Below are positions 13,308 to 29,172 of a stretch of 64,000 nt of DNA, piece after piece. The DNA lies in assembly GCA_965248705.1 (NCBI GenBank), contig CBDFJY010000002.1:1322980-1386979 (forward strand). The letters are read 5' to 3'. The DNA is from Acidimicrobiia bacterium. Lineage in GTDB: Bacteria > Actinomycetota > Acidimicrobiia > Spongiisociales > ZC4RG35. Numbering within the stretch: the first letter of the stretch is position 1; every line of letters starts with the position of its first letter. Below the pieces are notes generated by a model. The model did no database searches. It saw only the letters and a list, made by a program, of their open reading frames with translations, and was not told the DNA's origin. A program made the position numbers and the translations under genes.

Positions 13308-14309
13308 TTGGAGGTCCCTATGGAAAGCGCTCTGCAGACCGAGCTCGAACTGGAGATTGATCATCCGAAGCAGGGTCGCGTAAAGACACCTGTTTACCTC
13401 ATCCAAGCTGGGATGACTGATAAAATTAGCCCTATCAGATCGCACCAAATCGAAGTTTCGCCTATTCCCGCGGTAAACGTCGCCTCGGTGCCGCAACGCA
13501 GTCCGCTCCGCTATCCAGGCGGCAAGACATGGCTGGTCCCTCATATCCGTGCTTGGCTCAGCAGCTTCTCCGAGAGGCCCAGGTTGCTGGTCGAACCCTT
13601 CGCCGGCGGGGGGATTGTTTCACTGACCGCCGTTATGGAAAATTTGGTTGAACGTTGTCTTATGGTTGAGCTGGATCGCGACGTGGCTGCCTTCTGGCAC
13701 GCAGCCCTGCGTAAAGGGGAGGAACTCGCTGAAAAGGTGTCATGCTTCACGCCCACGAGAGAAGCGGTGCACTTGCTGGCGAGCCGCGAGACACACGACA
13801 TCGTGGAACACGGTTTTCGCACCCTCGTGTTGAATCGGACCCGCCGGGGTGGCATTCTGGCTCCGGGCGCCTCGTTCAGCCGAGTGGGTGAAAACGGCAA
13901 AGGGCTTGCTTCTCGCTGGTATCCCGAAACGATCGTGAATCGCTTGCAGGAAATAACGAAACACGCCGACCGCATCAGCTTCTGTGAGACGGATGGCATG
14001 AAGATGCTGGAAGCTTTCTCGGGCGAACTTGGTGGTGGCGCAGCTGTTTTCGTGGATCCGCCTTACACCGCCGGGGGCAAACGGGCCGGCAAGCGATTGT
14101 ACGCGCACAGCGAAATAGACCACCCACTGCTCTTTGAGATGCTCGCCGAGAGTGGCGCCGATTTTCTTATGACATACGATCTCTCATACGAAGTCGCCGC
14201 CTTGGTGCAAAAGCACGGCTTCCATGCTGTCCAGGTGACCATGAAGAACACGCACCACGCCCGGATTCCTGAATTGGTGATCACCCCTCGACCTGTGTTT
14301 GGTCCATGA
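13308..14309 (+). CDS. DNA methyltransferase, Dam-like D12 class (N6-adenine type motifs)
   Basis: LRYPGGK, EPFAGGG (FxGxG SAM motif I) and FVDPPY (DPPY motif IV). The true start may be the internal ATG near 13413. Lower GC than the host. Confidence 0.8.
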   Translation: MEVPMESALQTELELEIDHPKQGRVKTPVYLIQAGMTDKISPIRSHQIEVSPIPAVNVASVPQRSPLRYPGGKTWLVPHIRAWLSSFSERPRLLVEPFAGGGIVSLTAVMENLVERCLMVELDRDVAAFWHAALRKGEELAEKVSCFTPTREAVHLLASRETHDIVEHGFRTLVLNRTRRGGILAPGASFSRVGENGKGLASRWYPETIVNRLQEITKHADRISFCETDGMKMLEAFSGELGGGAAVFVDPPYTAGGKRAGKRLYAHSEIDHPLLFEMLAESGADFLMTYDLSYEVAALVQKHGFHAVQVTMKNTHHARIPELVITPRPVFGP

Positions 14310-15184
14310 GCACCCGTTACGGGATCGCGGAATGGTATGGCCGCCTATTTTCAGAACTCTCTCCCGAAACCCGGCATACCCTGGCAAGGAAGGCGTTGCG
14401 AGAAGATCCAGAGGCTCCGCCCTGTCCGTTTCAGAAGAACAAACCTCCCTGCCGCAAGCGTGGCGGAGTGTGTTCCCTGCGCCGTTACCAAAGAGGTGAG
14501 AGTGATCGCATCGGCCTTCCCAAGGGCGATCCGGTCGTAGTGTGCCCTGCTCGATTTGAGGAAGGACAATTATTGGTCGAATGGCTCGCTGAGATTGTCG
14601 GTTTCTCATCGAGCGAGGCGAGGCTGGCCCGCGAAGTGCCTTTCATGCAGGGCACCAGCACCGGTAAACCGGCTGGGAAGATAGATTTGGTAGTGGCCAA
14701 GGCCTCCAACGGCGACCTCAAATGGTATGGCTTGGAGATCCAGGCTGTTTATTTCTCAGGCAGAGGAATGAACTCCGAGTATTTGGGTCTTCGAGATGAC
14801 GACTGTAAAGACCCGCCGTTTCCGGGAGCGGTTCGCCGGCCGGATTGGCGATCCTCAAGTGCAAAGCGCCTCATGCCACAGTTGCAGATCAAGGTACCAA
14901 CCCTCCGTCGGTGGGGATCGAAGCTAGCTGTAGCGGTGGATCGGCCTTTTTTCGATTCGATGGGAGGGCCGAGTTCTGCTCCAAGCAGTGATCTCAATGA
15001 TGGTGATATCGTGTGGATGGTCCCGAGGCTCCTACCCAACGACACGGGGGGCAACGCGTTGTCCCGTGGCCACTGGGAAGTTCTTACCTTGGAGGAATCC
15101 AGCAGGAGACTTCTTGCCGCGGAAACCATCCCGCGTCGCGCCTTCGAACAAACACTAAGAGAGAAGCTGGAGCCCATCGGCTAG
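14306..15184 (+). CDS. putative type II restriction endonuclease, NotI-family-like
   Basis: Its ATG overlaps the MTase TGA (ATGA). A Cys cluster PPCPFQKNKPPCRKRGGVCSL, then VVCPARFEE and YGLEIQAVYFSG, resemble the NotI motifs TGTCPFL..SCVK..RGVCVV, LVCPNRALD and YGVLEIQTMDFHG. The comparison is from memory. Confidence 0.5.
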   Translation: MSTRYGIAEWYGRLFSELSPETRHTLARKALREDPEAPPCPFQKNKPPCRKRGGVCSLRRYQRGESDRIGLPKGDPVVVCPARFEEGQLLVEWLAEIVGFSSSEARLAREVPFMQGTSTGKPAGKIDLVVAKASNGDLKWYGLEIQAVYFSGRGMNSEYLGLRDDDCKDPPFPGAVRRPDWRSSSAKRLMPQLQIKVPTLRRWGSKLAVAVDRPFFDSMGGPSSAPSSDLNDGDIVWMVPRLLPNDTGGNALSRGHWEVLTLEESSRRLLAAETIPRRAFEQTLREKLEPIG

Positions 15185-15340: not shown

Positions 15341-15700
15341 TTAGAGGTCGGCTTTTTCGCGGGATTCTTCGTATTGGTGGAGGGCTACCAGGAACCCGAG
15401 GAAGAGCACGGCCGAGACCACGGTGAAGGTGATTGGGATGATCCGCACCTCGAAGGCGTTGAGTCCCTCGATGTTGGCCGGGCGGGGACCTCGGGGAGCG
15501 TAGAGGACGAAAAGCAGGCTGCCGATGGTCATCCAGGCCGAAATCCCGGCCCCGGTCACCAAGAAAGCCAGCTTCTTTCCCAGGTTGGTGTAGTTCAGTA
15601 GGTAGACGGTGCCGTAGAAAACCAGGATCGCCGTCACCAAGAGGATGATTCCGGTGACGAACAGATTGGCCGAAAGCAGGGATCGAAACAGTTCACGCAT
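15341..15700 (-). CDS. small integral membrane protein (3 predicted TM)
   Basis: Hydrophobic 119-aa ORF, last gene of the respiratory operon. Its 3' terminus is duplicated at 13150..13212. Confidence 0.5.
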   Translation of the reverse strand: MRELFRSLLSANLFVTGIILLVTAILVFYGTVYLLNYTNLGKKLAFLVTGAGISAWMTIGSLLFVLYAPRGPRPANIEGLNAFEVRIIPITFTVVSAVLFLGFLVALHQYEESREKADL

Positions 15701-15703
15701 AGC

Positions 15704-17410
15704 TCAGTTCCCCTTGCCGTTGAGGTTGCCTGCCCACAGGTAGTCCACCAGCAGATCCAGGTCGTCGGAGGAAAGCACCGCCCCGAAAGCGGGCATCTGC
15801 CCGTTCCCGAACCCGCTCACCCCGTAGGGCAGGTCGGCCACCGCCCCCACCAGCAGGAAGGAGCGAAGGTCTTCCTTGGCGATGAACTGCACTCGCGGTC
15901 TGCCCTTCCACACTGCCGGCCCGAACCCTCCCGAGCCTGGCTCGGAGGCATAGGGTGTCCCCGCTGACCAGCCGGAAGTGTGACAGCGCGCACAATAGCC
16001 GGTGAACACTCCAACCGCCCGGGTGGCCTGGTCCGTATCGCCGTCAAAAGCCGCGTCGGCCACTCCTTCCAGATCTATCTCCCACTTCCGCTCCATCTGG
16101 GCGTCCCGCAACTCTTCGAGGCCGGCGCGGGCGGGAACGAGCAGCCGCTCGGCGTTTTCGGTTCGCACCGACAGGTTTATCGCCGCGCTCGCCATACCGG
16201 AGACCGCGGTGGCGGCTGCCCGGTCGTCGGTGATCCCCCCGCCCGAGGAAGCCCGCTCAGGATCCAGGTTGACCACCATCAGGGTGTTGGGGCGGAGCGC
16301 TGTCCGGGCTATGGCCAGTTCGGCGGTGAGCACCCTTTCCAACCGGTCGGAGAGGCCGTCTCCATCCGAGTCTTCCTCGTCCTCGGCGTTAGCCGCCGTC
16401 TCGATAGAGGCAAGCCGCAACTGGAGAATCGGGGCCTGGGGCGCCATCGCCCGCAGGGTGGAGCGGGCAAGGTCGGCCACGGCGGCGTCGGGTCGCCCGT
16501 CCGTTGCGGGGTTTTGCGGATCGAAGGTCAAAGCTTCGATGTCGGTGAAGTCGAACAGGGCGGCGGCTGAGGCGGTTAGCTGGGAGATCGTCACCTCGGA
16601 GATATCCGACAGGTTGTCCCCGTCGCGGTCGATTCCCTGGTCCGAGAGTTCGAGGGTCCGGCGGGCGAGGACCACCAGTTCGGCCATGGTCTCGGCATGC
16701 CGTGGCGCCTGTTCTATATCGGCGATCAACTGCTGTTGCTCGATGATGGCCCTTTCCAGCGACTGGTCGGCGTTCTCCAGAAGGCTCAGCTGGTTCACGA
16801 CCATGCCGTCGGTTTTGCGAAGGGTCTCCTGTTGGGAGATTTGGATGCTCTCCAGGTAGTTGACGATGTCAAAGATCTGCTGTTCGTTCATGGGCCCCCC
16901 TCCCACGGTGCCCCAGGGGGGCATGGGGGAGTTGCCCCGCCCGTATGTAATCCAATAGGTGATGATGTCGCGGTCGTAACGCAGGAAGACGTCATCGAGA
17001 GCCGGCGCCGACCAGGACACGTTCACCCCGGTCCGCTTCTCCACATAGCTGGCCACTCCCCCCACTCCGCTAGGGCCGTGACAGCTCCAGCAGTCGGCAT
17101 CGTCAGGTCCCACCAACTCGGCGCCCCGTTCCACCGACTCCTCGTGGAACTGATCGACGAAGCTGAGTTGACGATCGGTCTCACTCAGGTAGTAAACCGC
17201 CAGTCCGACCGCCAGGAAGGCGGAGAGCAGAACTGCGCCCTGTTGGATGCGCTCCAGCCGGCGGGTCTCCAAAGCGTCGTCGGTGACCCCCGGCGCCTGG
17301 TTGGGAGGTATTCCTTCCCGGCGACGGGATCGAAGCGCGGCCACTCCCAAAAAAGAGAGCCAGATCACCGCTCCCACGACGACCAGGGTTATTACCAGCG
17401 AAGAGTCCAT
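15704..17410 (-). CDS. membrane-anchored diheme cytochrome c with a large acidic insertion
   Basis: Two CxxCH motifs (CWSCH near the N-terminus, CARCH near the C-terminus). Each has a downstream Met ligand context (MPPWG, MPAFG). Two N-terminal TM helices. A roughly 300-aa Asp/Glu-rich insert carries DRDGDNLSD and DSDGDGLSD motifs. Confidence 0.8.
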   Translation of the reverse strand: MDSSLVITLVVVGAVIWLSFLGVAALRSRRREGIPPNQAPGVTDDALETRRLERIQQGAVLLSAFLAVGLAVYYLSETDRQLSFVDQFHEESVERGAELVGPDDADCWSCHGPSGVGGVASYVEKRTGVNVSWSAPALDDVFLRYDRDIITYWITYGRGNSPMPPWGTVGGGPMNEQQIFDIVNYLESIQISQQETLRKTDGMVVNQLSLLENADQSLERAIIEQQQLIADIEQAPRHAETMAELVVLARRTLELSDQGIDRDGDNLSDISEVTISQLTASAAALFDFTDIEALTFDPQNPATDGRPDAAVADLARSTLRAMAPQAPILQLRLASIETAANAEDEEDSDGDGLSDRLERVLTAELAIARTALRPNTLMVVNLDPERASSGGGITDDRAAATAVSGMASAAINLSVRTENAERLLVPARAGLEELRDAQMERKWEIDLEGVADAAFDGDTDQATRAVGVFTGYCARCHTSGWSAGTPYASEPGSGGFGPAVWKGRPRVQFIAKEDLRSFLLVGAVADLPYGVSGFGNGQMPAFGAVLSSDDLDLLVDYLWAGNLNGKGN

Positions 17411-17420
17411 GACATTCCTC

Positions 17421-18287
17421 CTATATGCAGGAGGGGCCTTGCGGATAGGATACGGATTGGGCGATGGCCCGGGGGGTTTCCACGATCATTCCGGTTCTGA
17501 TGACCAACCGTCCTTCCTCGGTGACGTTGACCGCGAATCGGTCGAGATTCCGGGGGGCGGGACCGGCGAAATACTCTCCGATCGAGTTGTACTTGGATCC
17601 GTGGCAGGGGCATTCGAAACCTTGGGAGTCGTTGCACCAGGGCACCCGACATCCCAGGTGGACGCAGCGCTGATAGAGGGCCATCAGCCCACCGGCGACC
17701 ACGTCTCTGTCCGCGAATTGCTGGCTCATCTCGGTGGGCGCCGGGACTACATAGGCGCGGGCGTCGGGGATGAAAGCCGGGGTGACCAGGCCGGCGCTGT
17801 CGGTCATCGCCGGTACCAGGTCGGCGGCGAGTCCGGCGTCCACATCGCTCCCGAAGCCTCCGGTTATTTTGGGCCACAAAAAGGCCAGGATCTCTATCCC
17901 CATGATGCCAAACCACGCGACCGACATGGCGGCCAGGGACCGGTTGAAGAACTGCCGGCGGGTGACCCCCACCTCCTCGGGGGAGGCTTCCACGATCACC
18001 TGAGATTCGGTGATGGGCGCCAGCGCCTCCATCACCTCGACCGGGGCCTCTTCTTCCGCAACGGCCGGGGCTTCGGCCTCCGACGGCTCCGTGTCCACAG
18101 AGGTTTCCAGCACCAAATCCATGGAGGGAGCGGAACGGTCGGCCTTCCGGGCGCGGCGTTCTACCCGCTTGGGCCAGAGAGAGGCCGAGTCGGGATCCGC
18201 GCGGCGGAAGGCGATGGTGAAGGCGCCAATCGCGGCGGCGATGGCCACCGCCGCCACCCCGATGATGATCAGCTCGACGCTGTCCAT
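17421..18287 (-). CDS. Rieske [2Fe-2S] iron-sulfur protein
   Basis: CVHLGC..CPCHGS Rieske boxes. An internal twin-arginine-like TRRQFF sits ahead of the hydrophobic anchor. There is an extra N-terminal TM and an acidic extension. Confidence 0.85.
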
Positions 18288-18309
18288 CAGACCATCAGAC
18301 TATTCGACA

Positions 18310-19182
18310 TCAGTGGCCCCCAAAGTCGACCCAGTCTTTCAGGTCATCGAAAAATATCCCGTCCACCCACGGGTAGGCAAAGTTGAATCCCGGCCCCCGG
18401 AACAGCACTCCCAGGATGGTGAGGGTGGCTGCTCCGGCCAGGAAGATGGTGAACATCATGATGGCCAGTTTGCGGTCGGAGGGGCGGGTGGAGGGGTTGC
18501 GGTCTATATAGGGAATCATCATGAATCCCACCAGCCCGATCACGGTCGGCACCGTGACTCCGGCGATTTGGGGGTCAAAATAGGAGAGCATCTCCTGGAG
18601 ACCCAGGAAATACCAGGGTGCCTTGGAAGGGTTGGGGGTGGCATTGAAGTTGGCCGATTCCAGGAGGGGCGCCTGGAGGATGACCGAGAGAACCAGGAGA
18701 AAGGCGGTCATCGCCAAAAGGGCGGTGAACTCGGTGATCATCAGATGCGGCCAGGTGTTTACCTTGTCGGTGGGGTCGGCCTTTACCTGTTGGATGGCTC
18801 GGGCCTTGACCACGGTGAGCAGTCGCTGATGGCGGACTCCCTCGGGCAGGTCGGTGGGTGGGACCGAGGGACGAACCGAGACCGAAGCCGCCAATCGTCC
18901 GTTCCCGGCGCCGTTTTCCCCACTCGCCGGGGCGGCTGTGACGGCCGGGGTGATTACCGGAGCGGGCTCGGGCGGCGGGGGAGCGGGGGGAGTCTCGGAG
19001 ACGGATGGCGGGGGGGCGGTGGGAACCATGCGGGGGGCGGGCACCACGACCTTCTCTGCGGCTATTTCGGTGACCGGGGCCTCTCCGCGCATCTCGGCCA
19101 GAACCTGTTCAACCGGCAGGCCCAATGCCTTGGCCTTGGCTTCGGCGGACCGTCTCAACAGTTCTTCAGGGATTTGTGGCAC
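18310..19182 (-). CDS. cytochrome b C-terminal-domain protein (b6f subunit IV / PetD-like) with a Pro-rich N-terminal extension
   Basis: WPHLMITEF.., ..APWYFLGLQEMLSYF.. (the PEWY-type motif) and ..IMMFTIF... The first 130 aa are Pro/Ala-rich low complexity. Confidence 0.7.
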   Translation of the reverse strand: MPQIPEELLRRSAEAKAKALGLPVEQVLAEMRGEAPVTEIAAEKVVVPAPRMVPTAPPPSVSETPPAPPPPEPAPVITPAVTAAPASGENGAGNGRLAASVSVRPSVPPTDLPEGVRHQRLLTVVKARAIQQVKADPTDKVNTWPHLMITEFTALLAMTAFLLVLSVILQAPLLESANFNATPNPSKAPWYFLGLQEMLSYFDPQIAGVTVPTVIGLVGFMMIPYIDRNPSTRPSDRKLAIMMFTIFLAGAATLTILGVLFRGPGFNFAYPWVDGIFFDDLKDWVDFGGH

Positions 19183-19201
19183 TAGTGCTCACCTCGCATG
19201 T

Positions 19202-19990
19202 TCAGAGAGGCCCGGAGATGCCGCCGTCTTTGCGGACTCTCCAAAAGTGGACCGCCAGGAATATCACGATGATGAACGGCAGAAAGAGAACATGAAGCAC
19301 ATACCATCGCAAAAGTGTCCCCGCCGTTACCTCCACCCCGCCCAATAGGGCGAATTTCACCTGCGCGCCTATCACAGGAACGAACCCGGCCATGTTGGTG
19401 CCCACCGTCACCGCCCACAGAGCCAACTGGTCCCAGGGAAGCAGATAGCCGGTGAAGGAGAGGAGCAAGGTCAGGAGCAGCAGGATGACTCCCACCACCC
19501 AGTTGAACTCGCGGGGAGGCTTGTAAGCCCCGTGGTAGAAAACCCTGGACATGTGGAGAAACACGGTTAGCACCATCAGATGGGCGCCCCAGCGGTGCAT
19601 ATTCCTCATCAGGGAGCCAAAGGCGATGTCGGTGGAGAGCGCCTGCACATCGATGTAGGCCCGTTCCGCGGTGGGGGCGTAGTAGAACATCAGGAAAATG
19701 CCGGTCACGGTCAGGAGAATGAAGAGGAAAAAGCTCATCCCTCCCAGACAAAGCGTGTAGGAGAGCTTGACGCCGTGTCGCTTCACCTTCACCGGATGGA
19801 GGTGATAGAGCACGTTGTTCATGATCACATAGGAGCGGTTGCGGGGAGTGTCGGTGTAGCCCTTTTTGAAGGGAGAGCCGGGTCGCAGCATCGAATCCAT
19901 GAACTGGCCCGACCAGACTCGTCCCATCAACCCCGACACTGAGGTGCGGGCTTTGGTCAGAAGGCCTTGTCTGCCGTTTTGGTTGCTCAC
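19202..19990 (-). CDS. cytochrome b6-type (N-terminal heme-binding half of a split cytochrome b)
   Basis: ..YHLHPVKV.., ..[17 protein letters not shown].. and ..LPWDQL..WA..V.. show the characteristic b-heme His pairs on helices B and D. Confidence 0.85.
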
Positions 19991-19999
19991 CCTTACTCC

Positions 20000-20449
20000 T
20001 TACCAACGCATTCCATAGGTATAGCCGTGTTTGAAGTCCCTTTGGCCGGTGTCCACCTCCCAGGGCGCCGCGTTGAGGCCCATCTCCTCGGCCTGGGCGG
20101 CCAGGGACCCCTCGAACTTGCCCAGGGAGATGACCCCGGTGGGGCAGCGATCGATGCACAGGGCGCAGCGGGTGCACTCGTTTTCGTCGACCACGAAGAA
20201 ACCGTAATTGGTGACGTCTTCCCGTGGGTCATCGACGTTGACCGCTTCGTCGATGGCGTCCATAGAGAGATAGAAGATGCACTTCCACGGGCAGATGTCC
20301 ACGCAGCCCTCGCAAATGATGCACTCGGACTGATCGATGTGGAGAAACTGCTTGGGGCGAATCTTGCCCAGGTAGAAGTCGTTTTCCACCAGGGCGAGCT
20401 GGTAGTCGTCTCGAAAGGGCGGGGTCTCATCTACAACTCCGCGGGGCAT
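20000..20449 (-). CDS. 2[4Fe-4S] ferredoxin-like protein
   Basis: Two CxxCxxCxxxCP motifs: CIICEGCVDICP and CTRCALCIDRCP. Confidence 0.8.
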   Translation of the reverse strand: MPRGVVDETPPFRDDYQLALVENDFYLGKIRPKQFLHIDQSECIICEGCVDICPWKCIFYLSMDAIDEAVNVDDPREDVTNYGFFVVDENECTRCALCIDRCPTGVISLGKFEGSLAAQAEEMGLNAAPWEVDTGQRDFKHGYTYGMRW

Positions 20450-20450
20450 C

Positions 20451-21083
20451 TCAGCGGTCTCCCTTCACCAGCGGTCGGCCGTACGGGGACAACTGGACGG
20501 GGGGAGTGGGCTTCTTCTTGGGCGACTTGTATAGCTGCTGCAGTTGGTAGGCGAAAAAACCGGCGGCGCCCAAGGCCACCATGTTGTAGGTTGCCGAGAT
20601 GATGTCTTTGATGGCGCCCCAGCTTATCGCCACCTCGTTGCCCAGCATCAGCAACGGTGGAATGTTGAGTGCGATTCTCTGTCCCGACCAGTCGAGATCG
20701 GTCTGGGAGAGGTTGAGCCATTCGGAAGGGACGATCCCGAATATCATTACCAGTTCCATCCAGACCAAAAAGGCGGCGAAAGCGGCTCTCGCCCAGGTCA
20801 TTTTCTGGTTGAGCACCCACAGGAAGGCGGCGCCCGCCAACATCATCTGGGAGGCGGCCAGGGCTCCGAGGTAGCCGAGGCTCTTCCAGAACCAGCCCCG
20901 TGGTATCCAGTTGAAGAAGTCCACCACCAGGGTCGTGGAGACCCCGTTGACGATCTCGGTCTCCGGCAGCTTGGAATAGTGAATCCAGATCACCGCCACG
21001 GTCATGAGGGCGGCACCCATCAACAGCGACGACCACCCTATGAGGATCCTTTTTTGCTGGTCTAAAGAGCCGATGCGATGCAT
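20451..21083 (-). CDS. integral membrane protein, first gene of the cytochrome operon
   Basis: 210-aa Trp-rich polytopic ORF. Its stop abuts the ferredoxin start. No family recognised. Confidence 0.45.
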   Translation of the reverse strand: MHRIGSLDQQKRILIGWSSLLMGAALMTVAVIWIHYSKLPETEIVNGVSTTLVVDFFNWIPRGWFWKSLGYLGALAASQMMLAGAAFLWVLNQKMTWARAAFAAFLVWMELVMIFGIVPSEWLNLSQTDLDWSGQRIALNIPPLLMLGNEVAISWGAIKDIISATYNMVALGAAGFFAYQLQQLYKSPKKKPTPPVQLSPYGRPLVKGDR

Positions 21084-21222: not shown

Positions 21223-22770
21223 TTGCTATCTTTTGGAGCGGCTCTCATAGCTAACCTTTCCTTTTCCGGGGGTAGCGCTCTGAGTACAACCAAGAATAAT
21301 CAAGTCGGACATCCGAAAAATCGAGTCGGACGTTACGCGGCCTGGTCGGACGCGCTGGGTCCTGACGCCGCGGCCAAATGGCACATCATCATCTCCACCG
21401 CCTTTTTGGCGGTGGCCGGGATCGTATGGGTGGTAGGGATGGTGGAGCTGCGCTTCTCCGGAACGCTGACCGGGCCTTTCTCGTACGGGCGCATCCGCCC
21501 GATCGCCCTGTTGCTGGCCGTGGTGGGCTGGCTGACCCTGTCGCTGGCCGGTGGGGCCTACTACATTCTGCCCCGGCTCACCGGAACCCGGATGCGCAGC
21601 GAAGGCTTGGCGTTGGCGGGTGGGGTGGGAACGGCGCTGGTGACGGTGGTGGGAGCGGCGGTGGTGTTGTTGGGCGGAGGAGACGGGACCGGCCCTTTTT
21701 CTCTTCCCTGGTGGGTCTCTTTTCCGCTGCTCGCCACCCTTCTGGCGCCGATGGTGGTGACCGTCTCCACGGTTCGCCATCGACAAGAACCCAACATCTA
21801 CGTTTCTTTGTGGTATGCCCTGGCCGGGGTGGTTTGGCTTCCTCTCCTCTACCTGGTGGGCGCGCTTCCCGCACCCTCAGCCTTGGGGAGCGCCCTCTCC
21901 GGGTCGATATCTCTCTTCGGGCTCTCCAACCTGTGGGTGGTGGGAATGGGAGTCGGGCTTGCCTACTACGCCCTGGTGAAGGAGACGGGCAACCCCCTGG
22001 CCAGCCGACAGTTGGCGAGAGTGGGATTCTGGTCTCTGGCCTTTGCCTCGGCGTGGGCGGGATCCGCCCCCTTGGTTTTCGGTCCCATTCCCGGCTGGCT
22101 GGAGGCGGTGGCATTCCTGATGACGCTGGCGCTTCCTGTCTCGGCGCTGGCCAACGCCGCCAACCTCGCTTTGACCACCGACCAGTTCTGGGCGGAAAGG
22201 AAAGAGCGTCCGGTGGTGGCCGCGGCCTTGGCGGGCGTCTTTTTTGCTTTGATGACGGCGGCTCTAACCAGCTTTGGAACCATCCGCTCGGCGGCGGCGG
22301 TGGTGGGACTCACCCCCTTCTGGGACGGGGTGCTCTATGCCACCCTGTTCGGCGCGGGAGGCCTCCTGGTGGCTGCCTGGTCCTATCAGGCGCTGCCGTC
22401 GATCATCGGGCGGAAGCTGGCGGGGGTGAGGCTCGCCCGTCTTCATCTGCGTCTCACCTTCTGGGGAGTGGGTTTGACTTCCGCGCTGCTGGTGGGGGCC
22501 GGCTTGGTTTCGGGCTATAGCTGGGCGGGGGGTTCCTACAGTGGCATAAGTCCCACGGGCGAAGGCTGGGGGAGCCTGGTGGGCATGTCCTCGCTGATGG
22601 TGGGGTTGTCCATACTGTCGGGCCTGTTGACCCTGGTGGGCCAGCTCTCTTTCTGTTTGGCCATTGCCAGGACCTTTACCTCCGGACCCGCGTCCACCCA
22701 GGAGATATTCACTTTGGTTGCTGCTGATCGGTCGCCCGATTCCGAAGCTGAGGAAGAGGAAGAGGAATGA
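21223..22770 (+). CDS. polytopic membrane protein resembling heme-copper oxidase subunit I (CcoN-like) but lacking canonical His ligands
   Basis: At least 12 hydrophobic helices. ..FSYGRIRPIALLLAVVGW..GGAYYILPRLTG.. parallels the CcoN FGRLRPLHTNAV..YYVVQR region, with His replaced by Ala. There are only 4 His in 515 aa. The C-terminal tail is acidic (EAEEEEEE). It precedes a CcoO-like gene with overlapping stop and start. Confidence 0.4.
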   Translation: MLSFGAALIANLSFSGGSALSTTKNNQVGHPKNRVGRYAAWSDALGPDAAAKWHIIISTAFLAVAGIVWVVGMVELRFSGTLTGPFSYGRIRPIALLLAVVGWLTLSLAGGAYYILPRLTGTRMRSEGLALAGGVGTALVTVVGAAVVLLGGGDGTGPFSLPWWVSFPLLATLLAPMVVTVSTVRHRQEPNIYVSLWYALAGVVWLPLLYLVGALPAPSALGSALSGSISLFGLSNLWVVGMGVGLAYYALVKETGNPLASRQLARVGFWSLAFASAWAGSAPLVFGPIPGWLEAVAFLMTLALPVSALANAANLALTTDQFWAERKERPVVAAALAGVFFALMTAALTSFGTIRSAAAVVGLTPFWDGVLYATLFGAGGLLVAAWSYQALPSIIGRKLAGVRLARLHLRLTFWGVGLTSALLVGAGLVSGYSWAGGSYSGISPTGEGWGSLVGMSSLMVGLSILSGLLTLVGQLSFCLAIARTFTSGPASTQEIFTLVAADRSPDSEAEEEEEE

Positions 22771-23729
22771 GCGAGATACTGGAAGCGGCCGCTCGCGCCG
22801 TGGGCGCCCCCGCCGAGTTGGTGCAGCGCTCCGCCGAAGCGCGCGCCGGCGCCAGCGGCGTCTCTGTCGAAGAAGTTCTGACCGCCTGGGCGGGAGGTGG
22901 AGTGGCGCCCCCCTCCGTTCCACCCGCGGCTCCCGTTCCACCCGCGGCTCCGGCGCCTGCCGCGGCTCCCGTTCCACCCGCGGCTCCGGCGCCTGCCGCG
23001 GCTCCCGTTCCACCCGCGGCTCCGGCGCCTGCCGCGGCTCCCGTTCCACCCGCGGCTCCGGCGCCTGCCGCGGCCCCCGCTCCTGCCGTACCATTTCCCC
23101 CGCCTGTGGCCCCTCCAGTCGCAGCGCCGCCTGCCGCAACCCCCGCACCCCAGCCGTCGCCCGCGCTTGGCGCCGCGCCGTCGGCGCCTACCGCCCCTGT
23201 CGCCCCTGCGAGGCCCGCCCTGGTCACGCCCGGGGTCGCGGCGGGCCCGCCCCCGGTGCTGAAAGGTCGGGTGGATCGGCCGTTCCGGTATCTGTTCGGC
23301 GCCACTGCCCTGTTGATCCTGTGCTTGGGCGCCACTCTGGTGGTCCCCGCCCTTTCGGAAACGGGCCGGGGAGCACTCCACTCCGAGATCCCCTTCACCG
23401 CGCCGGCGCGGGCGGGAAAAGAGATATATCTGGCGGAGGGATGTGCGGGCTGTCACACCCAGATGGTCCGTCCCATCGTCGCCGACGCCCAACTGGCCGC
23501 TCTGGCCGGGGTGGGCGGGGTTACCCTGTCCGACACCAATCAGGTGATCGGCCGCCAGCGTTACGGTCCCGACTTGGCCAACGTGGGCAGTCGGATGTCC
23601 CCCGAGGACATCGAGGCGGTGCTTTCCGGCGAGGGAGACCATCTTTCCTACCGGGGCGACTGGACTGATTCCCTGGTGGCATACCTGGTGGAGTCGCGAG
23701 TTTTGACCGAGGACGGATCCAGTGAGTGA
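22767..23729 (+). CDS. CcoO/FixO-like monoheme cytochrome c with an N-terminal cytoplasmic domain and Pro/Ala repeat linker
   Basis: [34 protein letters not shown] closely follows the CcoO signature (G.x.Y..GC..CHSQM.RP..GPDL..VGGRYS). One TM ([20 protein letters not shown]) lies upstream of the heme domain. Confidence 0.6.
22914..23075. repeat. perfect 36-bp tandem repeat, 4 copies plus a partial copy, in frame ([12 protein letters not shown])n
   Basis: cccgttccacccgcggctccggcgcctgccgcggct repeated head-to-tail at 22932, 22968, 23004 and 23040. The last copy has one substitution. Confidence 0.9.
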
Positions 23730-24729
23730 GAATTTGGCGAGAGCGGCCCAGGCCATGGGTGCGCCGGAGGTTTTGGTGCAACGCTCGGCCGAAGCCCGGT
23801 CCCAGGCAAGCGGGGTCCCCGTCGAAGAAATTCTGGCGGCCTGGGCGGGTGGTGGCTCGGCGCCGACGGCCTCCTCCGCGGCTCCGGCTGGCGCTCCCGA
23901 TCCCGTACCTCCCCCGGCCCCAACCCAACCAGCCGCGCCGCCGCCCGTGGTTACCGCGCCTGTGGTTACCCCGCCCGCGGCTCCGAGGCCGGTGTCCCCC
24001 TCACCCGCTCCGGCGGCCCCGGTCGTGGCGCCGCCTCTTCCTCCTCCCTCGGAGGTGAGCACCAAGGAAGCGATTTCCTTCCCGGTGGTGGTGTCGGTGC
24101 CCACCGCCCGCCTGACGGAGAGAACCTCATCCACCCTTCCCCGCTGGCTCGCCGCTCTCTTCCTGGTCGTTCCGGTGATAGGTCTGCTCTATCTGGCGGG
24201 AAACTCCGCCCGGGCGGGATGTGTGGAGGGGGGAGTGGAGTTGGCTGTCAACCGGATCAACTCCACGGTGGTCAACTGCGACGGCAGCGAGTTCACCGGT
24301 CGCGCCGACCAATCGGCGGGGATTTTCCTGGTGATGGGGGAAACGATTTTCGAAACTTGTGCCGGATGTCATGGGGCCACCGGTGAAGGGGGAGTGGGGC
24401 CGGCGCTCGCCACCGTGCTCTCCACTTTTTCGGCTTGCGCGGCCCACATCGAGTGGGTGACCCTGGCCACCGGCGGCTTTCAGAACGCCGGAGAAACCAC
24501 CTACGGAGATTTGGCCAAATCGGTGGGCGGCGGGGGCTTCATGCCCGGATTCGCGACCAGTAACAGCCCCGAAGAGATTGCTTCGGTGGTCTCCTTCGAG
24601 CGGATCCGCTTCGGCGGGGCTGATCCCGATCAAACGCTGATGGAGTGTGGATTGGTAGAGGGCGACACGGGTGAGAGTGACACGGGAGAAGGCGAGGCGC
24701 CTCCCGCGGAGGAGGAAGGAAGCGAATGA
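23722..24729 (+). CDS. membrane-anchored c-type cytochrome (CxxCH) paralogous in its N-terminus to 22767..23729
   Basis: CAGCHGATGEGGVGPAL (class I cytochrome c). The N-terminal 45 aa, [45 protein letters not shown], are about 70% identical to the N-terminus of the preceding protein. A Pro/Ala linker and one TM follow. Confidence 0.6.
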   Translation: MSENLARAAQAMGAPEVLVQRSAEARSQASGVPVEEILAAWAGGGSAPTASSAAPAGAPDPVPPPAPTQPAAPPPVVTAPVVTPPAAPRPVSPSPAPAAPVVAPPLPPPSEVSTKEAISFPVVVSVPTARLTERTSSTLPRWLAALFLVVPVIGLLYLAGNSARAGCVEGGVELAVNRINSTVVNCDGSEFTGRADQSAGIFLVMGETIFETCAGCHGATGEGGVGPALATVLSTFSACAAHIEWVTLATGGFQNAGETTYGDLAKSVGGGGFMPGFATSNSPEEIASVVSFERIRFGGADPDQTLMECGLVEGDTGESDTGEGEAPPAEEEGSE

Positions 24730-26342: not shown

Positions 26343-27389
26343 TTAGGAGGGGGGTGCTTCGCTTGATGGCGGCGGGTTTTCAAGTAGTCGGTATAGCTGT
26401 CGGGCGATGTACCGTTTGAGGCAGCGGCGGGTTTCTCGGGTGGTTTTGCCTTGGCTGGTGCGTTTGGTGATGTAGGCGCGGGTTTTGGGACAGTATCGGG
26501 CGCGGCTGATGGCGATGGTGTGGATGGCTTGGTTGAGTTGGCGGTCACCGCGTCGGTTCAGCCGGTGGCGGGTGTGTTGTCCCGATGAGGCTTCCAAGGG
26601 GGCTACGCCGGCTAGCCGAGCGAAGGCTGCTTCGTTGCGGCAGCGGCGAGGATGGGACCAGGCAATGAACACTTGGGCGGCTGTGATGGGGCCGATCCCG
26701 GGTTGTTGGAGCAGTTGGGGAGCTACGGTTTGGACTAGTTCGGTGATAGTTGTTTTGAGTTGGGCTGCTTCGGTGGTGAGTGCATTGATTCGCCGGGCGA
26801 GGGAACGCATGGCCTGTTTGGTGGCGGTGTGTTCGTTGGCCGGTGCTGATGTGAGTCGAAACCTGTGGCATTTAGCGACCAGAGCAGCAGTGGTAACACC
26901 TCGGAGTTGGTCTCTGAGATCGACTGGCGCGGTCACTAGGAGAGCTTTCAGTTCGTTGATCGCCGATGTTCTAGCTGTTATTGCGCCTCGTCGGGTGGTT
27001 TCCAACACTCGTAAGGCTTCTCGGTCTCCCCGAACTCGCGGTACAGAAGGTCGGAAGCGGCCCAGCGCCTGGCGGGCGGCCCGGCGAGCGTCCAGGGCAT
27101 CGGTCTTGGCGCCGTCGCCGCTGGGGGTGGGATCGTTGAACTCGGTCACCAGTTCCCCACTAGCGACCAAATAGGAGGTCACACCAGCTCCGTAACTGCC
27201 TGTGCCTTCCACAGACCATACCCGATCGGCGGCCTGGGTGTATTGGTCTACCCACTTCAACAACCGCTTGTATCCCAGCCCGCTGGTCTCGAACACCGCA
27301 GACGCCTGTTCTCCGGTGGTGGCGGTGTCCACTACCGACGCGGTGACCCGGTCACGATCCGGGTCGATCCCGATCACATGTTCTACCAA
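26343..27389 (-). mobile_element. IS110-family transposase gene (copy 1)
   Basis: ..HVIGIDPDRDRVTASVV.. DEDD N-terminal domain. C-terminal ..EASSGQHTRHRLNRRGDRQLNQAIHTIAISRAR.. is the Transposase_20-like region. The ATG-defined ORF extends to 27560, but the conserved core begins near 27389. Confidence 0.75.
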
Positions 27390-27474
27390 TGAGGCCAACA
27401 CAACAACCTTCTTTCCTTGTTTGCTACCTGGTTTGTCCAAGGAGGTGCGATCCGAACGGCAGGACTGTGATGAG

Positions 27475-28649
27475 TCACACCCCTTTGGGGTGGACAGGCT
27501 TCTGATCAGGCCAGCGCGGTACGCCAGGTCGGCGCTGGTGGTCAATGTCGGACAGATCATAGGAAAGACACCAAACCGGGTCAGTCAAATTGAGGGTCAC
27601 GACATCAATTCCAGCACCGTACCTGATAGCCTCCAAGGGCACCCGCCATATTCTCACAGTCAAATTGGGGGGGGGGGGTTGGAGGTGTTTGTAGACGCGG
27701 TTGGAGATGTGGCGTTTGAGGTTGCGGATGGCTTCTTTGGGGGTTTTGCCTCGGGCGAGTTGTTTTTGGTAGTAGCGGTGTCCTTCGCTGCCGGGTTGGG
27801 AGATTTGGGTGAGGGCTGCGGTGTAGAGGGCTTGGTTGATGCGGCGGTTTCCTCCTCGGTTGAGTCGATGGCGTGTTATGCGTCCCGAGCTGGCTTCCAG
27901 TGGTGCGGTGTCGTTGGCCATGGCAAATTTGGCTTTGGTGGGGTAGTGGGCGGGGTTCCCGACCTGGGCGATGATCTCGGCGGCGGTGAGGTTGCCGATG
28001 CCGTGGATGTGGGTGAGGGTGGCGCCGGTGGTTTTGACCACCGTGGTGATCTGTTGGGTGAGTTCTTGGATCTGTCGGCTCAGGGAGCGTATGTGGCGGG
28101 TTCTTTGTTTGGCGATCCGGGCGCGGGTGGTGGTGTCACGGGCGAGCATTCGTGTCACGCGGTCAACAGCGGACGGGTTGGTGAGAGCGGTGGGAAGTTT
28201 GGGATGATCGCCGCGCAGTTGGGTGAGATCGGCGTGGAGCCGGTTGATCTGGCGGGTGCGGGTTTCGACCAGTTCACGGCGGTATCCGACCAAAAGCCGC
28301 AGGTCTTCTGTGATACCGTCGGGGCGGCTACCCGGGCGATTAACAAAGCGTCAGTGGAATCGTTCTTGACAGGCGTGCGTTGTCTCCGCCGTTGCCTACT
28401 GGTCATCTGTGGTGGTACTTCCACCACCTCGATACCCGCTTCCACAAGCGCCAAAGCCGCGGGACGTCCGTAATGACCGGACCCTTCGATAGCTACCCGC
28501 CCGGCGCCGGTTTCCCGCGCCCAGGCCACCAACCGGGCACGACCCCCGGAGGTGTTAGGGACACAACGGGTCCCGACCTGGCGCAGGGCCTGGTCGATAA
28601 CACAGCCCATCAAAGTATCCTTGTGCGAGTCGATTCCAATAACAAACAT
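27475..28649 (-). pseudogene. IS110-family transposase (copy 2), split by a frameshift
   Basis: The N-terminal frame reads MFVIGIDSHKDTLMGCVI..ALLIARVAAP and runs to junk after about 28300. The C-terminal frame reads ..LLVGYRRELVETRTRQINRLHADL..EASSGRITRHRLNRGGNRRINQALY... A single-nucleotide shift near the gccgcccc run at about 28300 would join them. The C-terminus reads through a C12 tract (PPPP). Confidence 0.7.
27667..27678. repeat. G12 homopolymer tract
   Basis: caaattgggggggggggggttggagg. It encodes PPPP on the minus strand inside the IS110 copy 2 C-terminus. With 11 G the frame would stop two codons later (..PPPPI*), which resembles the copy 1 C-terminus. Confidence 0.9.
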
Positions 28650-29172
28650 GATTCGCGGTTCCTCTCTGAAGTCGGGAACATGGGATCGGCGGGTTCGGCG
28701 AAGCGCAGCCGTGCGTCGGTTCACACCCTCTGGGTGGAGAACCTCATGCTCCTATCAAGCGACAACACCGAACGAAACAGCCGGTGGGGAGACACTCGCC
28801 AACCAAAGTTACCAACCTGGGAACCAAGAACCGGGACAGACGGGGGAAGAGCCATCCCCACCGGCAACACCCATTCAAACACGCACGGCGGGGGAGGGCC
28901 CAACGGGTTAAAAAGATTCCCACGATTTTCGCGAGATAGAATTGTTCGGATCGGTGACCGGACAGGGTGGCTGTGTACGCAGCGGCGCTTGAGTAGTCGG
29001 GCGGTTGTGAACCGGCCCTCGGTGTCATCCCGCCTTCCCTTTAGGTGACGATCGAAGGATGCCCGATTTCCCGCCCGACCGATTACAGGATGGAGCAAAC
29101 CGGACGGGATTATCAAGTTTTTCGGAGCGCTCTTTTCGCGGATCGGAGAATCGCTGACCCGACGTCTCTTGC

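Follow-up and report, generated by a model that had tools for sequence, protein, structure and literature searches.

A predicted three-helix domain at the N-termini of membrane-anchored cytochromes c and of a subunit IV-like protein in Acidimicrobiia, a possible cytoplasmic docking module of the respiratory chain

We analysed a stretch of 64,000 nucleotides (nt) from an Acidimicrobiia bacterium (GenBank assembly GCA_965248705.1, contig CBDFJY010000002.1, positions 1,322,980 to 1,386,979), hereafter the window, in which a CcoN-like gene is followed by the genes of two membrane-anchored cytochromes c, the first of them FixO/CcoO-like, that begin with the same N-terminal domain of 45 amino acids (aa), hereafter the module. 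The start codon of the FixO-like open reading frame (ORF) overlaps the stop codon of the CcoN-like gene (ATGA, 22767-22770), and the second cytochrome c starts with a GTG at 23722 that gives an 8-nt overlap with the end of the FixO-like ORF, indicating that the three genes form one operon. A divergent operon on the other strand encodes, in this order, a 210-aa membrane protein, a 2x[4Fe-4S] ferredoxin, cytochrome b6, subunit IV, a Rieske protein, a dihaem cytochrome c (568 aa) and a small membrane protein (119 aa). The coordinates of the features are collected in Table 1.

An earlier reading of this DNA, made from the letters and their translations alone (the sequence-only reading), had noticed that the two adjacent cytochromes share their N-termini and differ in the type of their haem domains, and both observations were confirmed. 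The first 45 aa were identical at 33 of 45 positions in an ungapped alignment (BLASTP, E=1e-14), and no significant BLASTP alignment was obtained for the remainder of the two proteins. The FixO-like protein matched Pfam PF02433 (FixO/CcoO) with 48.8 bits at a cut-off of 29.6, the match spanning profile positions 14-114 of 219, which is the first half only, and it scored 49.8 bits against NCBIfam TIGR00781 (ccoO), far under the cut-off of 200.65. The second cytochrome c matched the class-I family Cytochrom_C (PF00034) with 26.2 bits (cut-off 21.3). Each cytochrome carries one strongly hydrophobic segment with a single CxxCH motif downstream of it. An assignment of the second cytochrome c to CcoP/FixP was rejected, since it has one CxxCH instead of two and its score against the FixP_N anchor domain (13.3 bits) lies below the cut-off of 24.9; moreover, TIGR00782 (ccoP) was absent among its NCBIfam matches at E<=0.01.

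The 135-nt stretches at the 5′-ends of the two cytochrome genes in the window were 71% identical in DNA. Counted by codon position, 36/45 first, 38/45 second and 22/45 third positions were identical, and this divergence at third positions indicates an old duplicate under purifying selection rather than a fresh copy. The Pro/Ala-rich linkers that follow the module in the two proteins are unrelated to each other in sequence, and a 36-bp tandem repeat within the FixO-like linker is a sign of a recent change in linker length.

The module is laid out as helix 1 (xE.L..AA.A.G), a P-E turn, helix 2 (LV.RSAEA(R/K)A.A), a G-V-S/P turn and helix 3 (VEEVLAAWAGG), and its most conserved part is the polar helix-2 motif R-S-A-E-A-R/K. 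AlphaFold2, given an alignment of 45 sequences, returned a three-helix unit (helices 3-12, 16-30 and 34-41) with a mean predicted local distance difference test score (pLDDT) of 89 and a predicted template modelling score (pTM) of 0.67, and the module is predicted to fold independently as a three-helix bundle. When the natural three-copy N-terminal region of another carrier (P0103) was modelled with AlphaFold2, the copies reached a pLDDT >90 and the linkers stayed <50 at a pTM of 0.31, a model that suggests beads on a string joined by disordered linkers. When all carriers were scanned against Pfam and NCBIfam, the module fell into no family, nor did it match one in the PDB, in agreement with the remark of the sequence-only reading that such a domain is not a standard feature, and a PDB profile search returned designed repeat proteins only.

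In the carriers, Lys and Arg are enriched before the transmembrane (TM) segment and the haem motif stands after it. Because the haem domain must be outside and positive residues are enriched before the TM segment, the module probably lies in the cytoplasm, as a soluble domain ahead of the first TM helix of N-in proteins, which is where the sequence-only reading had placed it. That reading had also considered a cleaved signal peptide. A Sec or Tat signal peptide was rejected here, as there is no hydrophobic core (the highest 15-aa Kyte-Doolittle mean within the first 60 aa is 0.9-1.0), and a Tat signal in particular because the RR of the subunit-IV form described below precedes the charged stretch SAEAKAKA and the cytochrome forms have QR. 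The module is separated from the first TM helix by a disordered, Pro/Ala/Glu-rich tether of ~45-220 residues (linker length: median 63-119 aa, range 44-219). P, A, V and E predominate in the linkers, those of Actinomarina being Glu-rich instead of Pro/Ala-rich, and many carriers have 2-7 tandem copies of the module with low-complexity linkers between them.

We found a third copy of the module in the window, at the N-terminus of a PetD/subunit-IV-like protein of the divergent operon (18310..19182, -) that begins MPQIPEELLRRSAEAKAKALGLPVEQVLAEMRGEA. Its likeness to the cytochrome copies was weak by pairwise BLAST (E=0.34). A profile made from the cytochrome-type copies of other genomes detected it at E=7e-9 and gave no other match in the six-frame translation of the window, and the reciprocal subunit-IV-type profile detected both window cytochromes (E=3e-9 and E=3e-8). 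Helix 1 is missing from this short form, and the internal copies of multi-copy proteins keep all three helices. The protein matched PF00032 (Cytochrom_B_C) with 34.4 bits (cut-off 20.7) and is predicted to have three TM helices, and the gene that adjoins it, a split cytochrome b6, matched PF00033 at 165 bits. Judged by these profile matches, the third carrier is a member of the PetD/cytochrome b6f subunit IV family to which a module and a linker have been added.

We then asked how widely the module occurs. A 39-position profile searched against 1.84 billion proteins matched 425 cluster representatives at E<=1e-3 and 182 at E<=1e-10, and the carriers were inspected for the best 150 of the 425. 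With one genome per GTDB species, 338 module stretches were confirmed. The best 80 of these 338 came almost all from genomes titled Acidimicrobiia, Candidatus Actinomarina, OCS155 or unclassified Actinomycetota/bacterium, with a few from bins labelled Acidobacteria or Gammaproteobacteria, which are taken to be mis-binned. On these sequences the module appears so far to be confined to Acidimicrobiia-type genomes, and it is retained in the streamlined, roughly 1-Mb genomes of Actinomarina. When the short domain was searched against an index of 5.8 billion proteins, all matches were fragments <100 aa and added little. The existing names of the carrier proteins, such as 'HpaF' and 'energy transducer TonB', are accidental, and we found no description of the module in the literature. 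The module is an undescribed domain family, which annotation misnames or leaves blank.

A census of 77 fetched loci and the window (78 sequences) yielded 198 module ORFs, comprising 58 second cytochromes c, 56 subunit-IV-like proteins, 31 FixO-like proteins, 27 further carriers with the module, one TM helix and a CxxCH (divergent FixO-type, from Actinomarina), 6 ORFs of a polytopic protein of unknown family, which in related genomes is headed by the module, and 20 remaining carriers, mostly fragments. The module precedes the first TM helix, apart from a few cases that trace back to fused or read-through gene calls. Those matches of the protein search that had no TM helix turned out to be frameshifted or truncated gene calls, so that the search gave no soluble carrier. 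In a protein of 618 aa (P0131), seven tandem copies precede a part that is homologous to the small three-TM protein encoded in the window at 15341..15700 (-); the window's own protein (119 aa) has zero module copies. All carriers seen belong to the aerobic respiratory chain or are genetically linked with it. The suggestion of the sequence-only reading that the domain is specific to the cytochrome complex was not borne out, as it also occurs on the bc subunit IV, on the polytopic protein, which is linked to aa3-type oxidase genes, and on some small membrane proteins of the bc operon.

The gene order of the divergent cluster is kept in all clades examined, from the relatives of the window to Actinomarina; the strand opposite the Rieske/cytochrome b operon carries the CcoN-like gene, then the FixO-like gene (module) and then the second cytochrome c (module). 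In 40 of 50 complete clusters all three proteins (subunit IV, FixO-like and second cytochrome c) had the module, so that the co-occurrence of the domain with the CcoN-like gene, which the sequence-only reading had suggested checking, was observed. The exceptions are fragmented gene calls, CcoN-FixO fusions and Actinomarina clusters without a FixO-like gene. In the fusions (L044 and L080; L080 7737-9998), the FixO part is without the module, and in L080 the second cytochrome c has three module copies. In L030, L035, L041 and L042, the CcoN-like gene is followed directly by the second cytochrome c. The polytopic carrier lies at a separate locus. It adjoined the aa3-type oxidase genes COX1-COX3-COX4_pro-CtaG in every locus where it was seen (8/8), and the one in L071 immediately follows CtaG in the same orientation.

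The CcoN-like protein, a homologue of haem-copper-oxidase subunit I, gave weak family matches (COX1, 96.7 bits; TIGR00780, 109.5 bits with a cut-off of 583), and its top PDB sequence match was 6xkw chain n, the CcoN of Rhodobacter capsulatus. The His motifs PLHTS, GHNAVGF, GPHHLHY and GHVHSG of 6xkw_n, the metal-ligand motifs, were all aligned to non-His residues, and no conserved His column was found in 68 CcoN-like orthologues across Acidimicrobiia. All six canonical His ligands (of haem b, haem b3 and CuB) are missing from the protein, so canonical binding of two haems or of CuB is impossible, and a complex with such a CcoN partner, lacking ligands for haem and copper, cannot be an oxidase. 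We infer that the CcoN-like protein may be a membrane scaffold for the two cytochromes c, a former oxidase without cofactors, and our literature search found no description of a ligand-less CcoN in Acidimicrobiia. In many lineages (L001-L077), acidic Glu/Asp tails occur at the C-termini of the CcoN-like protein (22735-22767 in the window), the second cytochrome c (24690-24726) and the aa3-linked polytopic protein, and the GAGGAA repeat that encodes the tail of the CcoN-like protein in the window may double as the ribosome-binding site of the next gene. The tails of the CcoN-like and polytopic proteins were considered as a possible ligand of the module and rejected as not specific, because the second cytochrome c bears such a tail at an end that faces outwards.

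Comparison of the module copies within and between genomes pointed to concerted evolution of the two cytochromes. The FixO-type and second-cytochrome copies of the same genome shared ~82-84% protein identity on average, compared with ~64% module identity between genomes, orthologues included. In 19 loci, the 42 compared residues were identical and the underlying DNA was 97-100% identical, and in many Actinomarina genomes the 5′-ends of the cytochrome genes were 94-100% identical in DNA. The near-identical tract extends from the start codon over 152-279 nt and reaches into the linker; such 5′-ends were seen at L013 9213-9411 and 10000-10198, and likewise in L034, L060 and L072, as direct repeats ~790 bp apart. 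These tracts indicate that gene conversion between direct repeats ~760-800 bp apart keeps the pair alike. For the pair in the window, the identity at synonymous sites was 0.55 with a GC content at third codon positions (GC3) of 0.74, and this identity indicates that the last conversion was long ago. The sequence-only reading had raised a recent local duplication, with near-identical DNA continuing into the linker, as an argument against its own proposal. This does not describe the window, with its 71% identical 5′-ends and unrelated linkers, whereas in many other genomes near-identical 5′ DNA does run into the linker, by way of gene conversion. The subunit-IV forms always group with other subunit-IV forms. 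The near-identity of the cytochrome copies, as far as their sequences tell, would fit with both serving one function interchangeably, and the FixO-like gene may have been lost in some Actinomarina through deletion between the repeated 5′-ends.

We tentatively propose, with a confidence that stops somewhat short of even, that the module may be a cytoplasmic docking handle, carried on a flexible arm and shared for a common partner, that links complex III, the cytochrome c relay and complex IV. The carriers would present the same conserved polar surface of helix 2 (R21, S22, E24 and R26) to one cytoplasmic partner, which might be a soluble protein such as the ferredoxin of the operon, the cytoplasmic face of the complexes, or the module itself. 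The copy number of 1-7 would set the valency, as in avidity-tuned systems, and the outcome would be that complexes III and IV are brought or held together, or co-localised, with the relay of membrane-anchored cytochromes c on its putative CcoN-like scaffold. An assembly or targeting role, as suggested by the sequence-only reading, is plausible. A wider version, which we consider unlikely, is that the whole aerobic chain of Acidimicrobiia might be organised through this one multivalent cytoplasmic module, tying together complex III, the relay on a cofactor-less former cbb3 oxidase and the aa3 oxidase.

Several points weigh against the docking proposal. Fold and sequence searches gave no informative relative of the module, and the low pTM of the natural three-copy array lends no support to copies packing together. 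Gene conversion alone could keep the cytochrome copies alike without selection for a common partner. That the polytopic carrier is encoded beside the aa3 genes does not prove that the protein is a subunit. Furthermore, the carriers come from the best matches of the profile search and from the fetched loci, and non-respiratory carriers may be missed.

Among the other explanations, the first is that the modules bind each other, as homo- or hetero-oligomers. Subunit IV, the aa3-linked protein and both cytochromes would then be cross-linked directly, giving a supercomplex or a patch of the membrane without a separate partner. The presence of the same module on several complexes, the multivalent tandem arrays and the paralogues kept identical would all suit such self-association, as would A23, A25, A27 and A29 of helix 2, which are nearly invariant and alternate in the manner of small residues in tightly packed helices. 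However, AlphaFold2 left the three natural copies unpacked, with linkers of low pLDDT, which is a weak test, and the module has an acidic net charge, counted by hand as -3 to -6, that disfavours homotypic contact; we regard direct binding between modules as rather improbable. Still somewhat less probable in our judgement is an aid to biogenesis and topology, the kind of role that the sequence-only reading had suggested. In this case a fast-folding acidic domain with a spacer would keep the N-terminus in, or would recruit a targeting or assembly factor to the nascent chain, after which the first TM helix would insert N-in and the haem domain would be exported. The position of the module at the extreme N-terminus, before the first TM helix of N-in proteins, agrees with this, but the usual positive-inside signal is already there, a topology anchor needs neither up to 7 copies nor a strongly conserved polar surface, and FixO fused to CcoN simply loses the module. 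Canonical CcoO and PetD, moreover, are not known to need such a domain for insertion.

It is very improbable that the module is a functionless passenger, that is, a locally duplicated 5′ segment kept alike by gene conversion. The near-identical 5′ DNA that reaches into the linker in many genomes and the unstable length of the linkers would be expected of a passenger, but the window pair is old and still 73% identical in protein, with its changes concentrated at third codon positions, and the module is also found on unlinked genes, namely subunit IV on the other strand and the aa3-linked protein at another locus. It is also conserved across the class, down to the small genomes of Actinomarina, and the observed conservation already contradicts a ratio of non-synonymous to synonymous substitution rates (dN/dS) near 1. 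A degenerate helix-turn-helix (HTH) or ANTAR-like unit tying the complexes to DNA or RNA is equally hard to credit, as all matches lie below the family thresholds, the domain is net acidic without a basic patch, the best structural matches are designed repeat proteins, and neither an above-threshold profile match nor a clear structural match placed the module in the HTH or ANTAR families.

Table 1. Coordinates of the two operons and of the module copies in the window.
Feature	Position (nt)	Strand	Remarks
CcoN-like haem-copper-oxidase subunit I homologue	21223..22770	+	first gene of the cytochrome operon
FixO/CcoO-like monohaem cytochrome c	22767..23729	+	ORF of 320 aa
Module of the FixO-like protein	22767..22901	+	45 aa, full three-helix form
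Linker of the FixO-like protein	22902..23288	+	aa 46-174, Pro/Ala-rich, low complexity, probably cytoplasmic
36-bp tandem repeat within this linker	22924..23083	+	4.4 copies, 98% match
Membrane anchor and haem domain of the FixO-like protein	23289..23729	+	anchor aa 175-193; extracytoplasmic FixO-type haem domain
CAGCH of the FixO-like protein	23442-23456	+	aa 226-230
Second monohaem cytochrome c	23722..24729	+	ORF of 335 aa
Module of the second cytochrome c	23722..23856	+	45 aa
Linker of the second cytochrome c	23857..24144	+	aa 46-141, Pro/Ala-rich
Membrane anchor and haem domain of the second cytochrome c	24145..24729	+	anchor aa 142-160; class-I cytochrome c domain
CAGCH of the second cytochrome c	24358-24372	+	aa 213-217
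Divergent Rieske/cytochrome b operon	15341..21083	-	
Third module copy, N-terminus of the PetD/subunit-IV-like protein	19078..19182	-	short form without helix 1 (MPQIPEELLRRSAEAKAKALGLPVEQVLAEMRGEA)
Rest of the subunit-IV-like protein	18310..19077	-	P/A/E-rich linker aa 36-154 and three TM helices (PF00032)

Other features of the divergent operon and its surroundings were also noted. The ferredoxin-type protein (20000-20449, -) has 2x[4Fe-4S] and neither a TM helix nor a signal sequence, and the 210-aa membrane protein (20451-21083, -) has no family match; the two genes are kept at the head of the operon in every clade examined, and a ferredoxin gene within a bc-type operon is unusual. In the split cytochrome b6 (19202-19990, -), a Cys, aligned by eye with the cytochrome b6 sequence NIFYCIGGITF, presumably corresponds to the Cys that binds haem ci covalently in b6f and in the Firmicutes b6c. 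In the Rieske protein (17421-18287, -), the second anchor, of the TRRQFF type, is preceded by an additional TM helix at the N-terminus and by an acidic segment that is rich in Pro, Ala and Glu and probably cytoplasmic, indicating that long low-complexity cytoplasmic segments are common to several subunits in the cluster. A D12-class adenine methyltransferase and a NotI-family restriction endonuclease, a restriction-modification pair, lie just past the 3′-end of the respiratory cluster (13308-15184, +). Two or three ORFs at 26343-28724 (-) have sequences like those of IS110-family transposases and may encode such enzymes (e.g. ...APLEASSG..TRHRLNRRGDRQLN...). They lie ~1.6 kb downstream of the cytochrome operon, and the GC content dips to 0.59 there.

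If the whole aerobic chain is indeed organised through the module, respiratory supercomplexes or membrane respiratory patches would be assembled here in a manner not known before. Soluble cytochrome c is not known to be used in the actinobacterial respiratory chains that have been studied. Structural detail on the coupling of complexes III and IV without soluble cytochrome c exists for Mycobacterium and Corynebacterium only, and the class considered here shows different parts: a cytochrome b complex that is split and has a ferredoxin gene in its operon, a ligand-less CcoN homologue, and one cytoplasmic domain repeated on members of each module of the chain. Among the members of the class are the marine Actinomarina, which rank with the most abundant bacteria in the surface waters of the ocean, and a common docking handle would offer an experimental entry to supercomplex organisation in organisms that are uncultivated or rarely cultivated.

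Compared with known systems, the cytochrome operon is closest in layout to that of cbb3 oxidases. The FixO-like protein has an N-in anchor and a monohaem domain of the CcoO type, matched over the first half of the FixO profile, and the order of a CcoN-like, a CcoO-like and a further cytochrome c gene is that of ccoNOP. Unlike in cbb3, the cytochromes of the window start with an additional domain on the cytoplasmic side, followed by a long linker; the product of the third gene binds one haem and not two, and the CcoN partner is without any haem or copper ligands.

In cytochrome cy, the arm is periplasmic and connects the anchor with the haem domain. In contrast, the order in the window is N-domain, linker, anchor and haem domain, with an arm that is probably cytoplasmic and ends in a folded domain, and a tethered carrier of the cy type was ruled out by this cytoplasmic-side linker. 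The resemblance to the bc1-cbb3 supercomplex of R. capsulatus with membrane-anchored cytochrome cy (PMC7876108; PDB 6xkw) consists in a c-type cytochrome that is anchored in the membrane and bears a flexible arm rich in Ala and Pro, within a chain in which a CcoN-type protein associates with complex III. As a functional analogy only, the peripheral-subunit-binding domain (PSBD) and lipoyl arms of the E2 proteins of 2-oxo-acid dehydrogenases combine a helical domain of ~40 residues with Ala/Pro-rich flexible linkers, variable copy number and partner docking. Homology to the PSBD (E3_binding) was rejected, with an hhalign probability of 0.5% against an alignment of five PSBD sequences and no Pfam match at E<=0.1, and the context in the window differs, being that of membrane respiratory proteins. 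The designed left-handed alpha/alpha toroid repeats that the module matched (PDB 4yxz and 9h3c) are artificial, and the match reflects generic helix-loop-helix geometry and carries no functional information for the module.

The obligate bcc-aa3 supercomplex of Mycobacterium and Corynebacterium comes from the same phylum, Actinomycetota. A soluble cytochrome c is not known in this chain, which makes a physical coupling of complexes III and IV necessary, and the supercomplex includes lineage-specific accessory subunits. It differs from the system described here in having a dihaem QcrC, an unsplit QcrB and no shared cytoplasmic module, whereas in the window cytochrome b is split into b6 and subunit IV, and a ferredoxin gene and the operon of the CcoN-like putative scaffold are attached.

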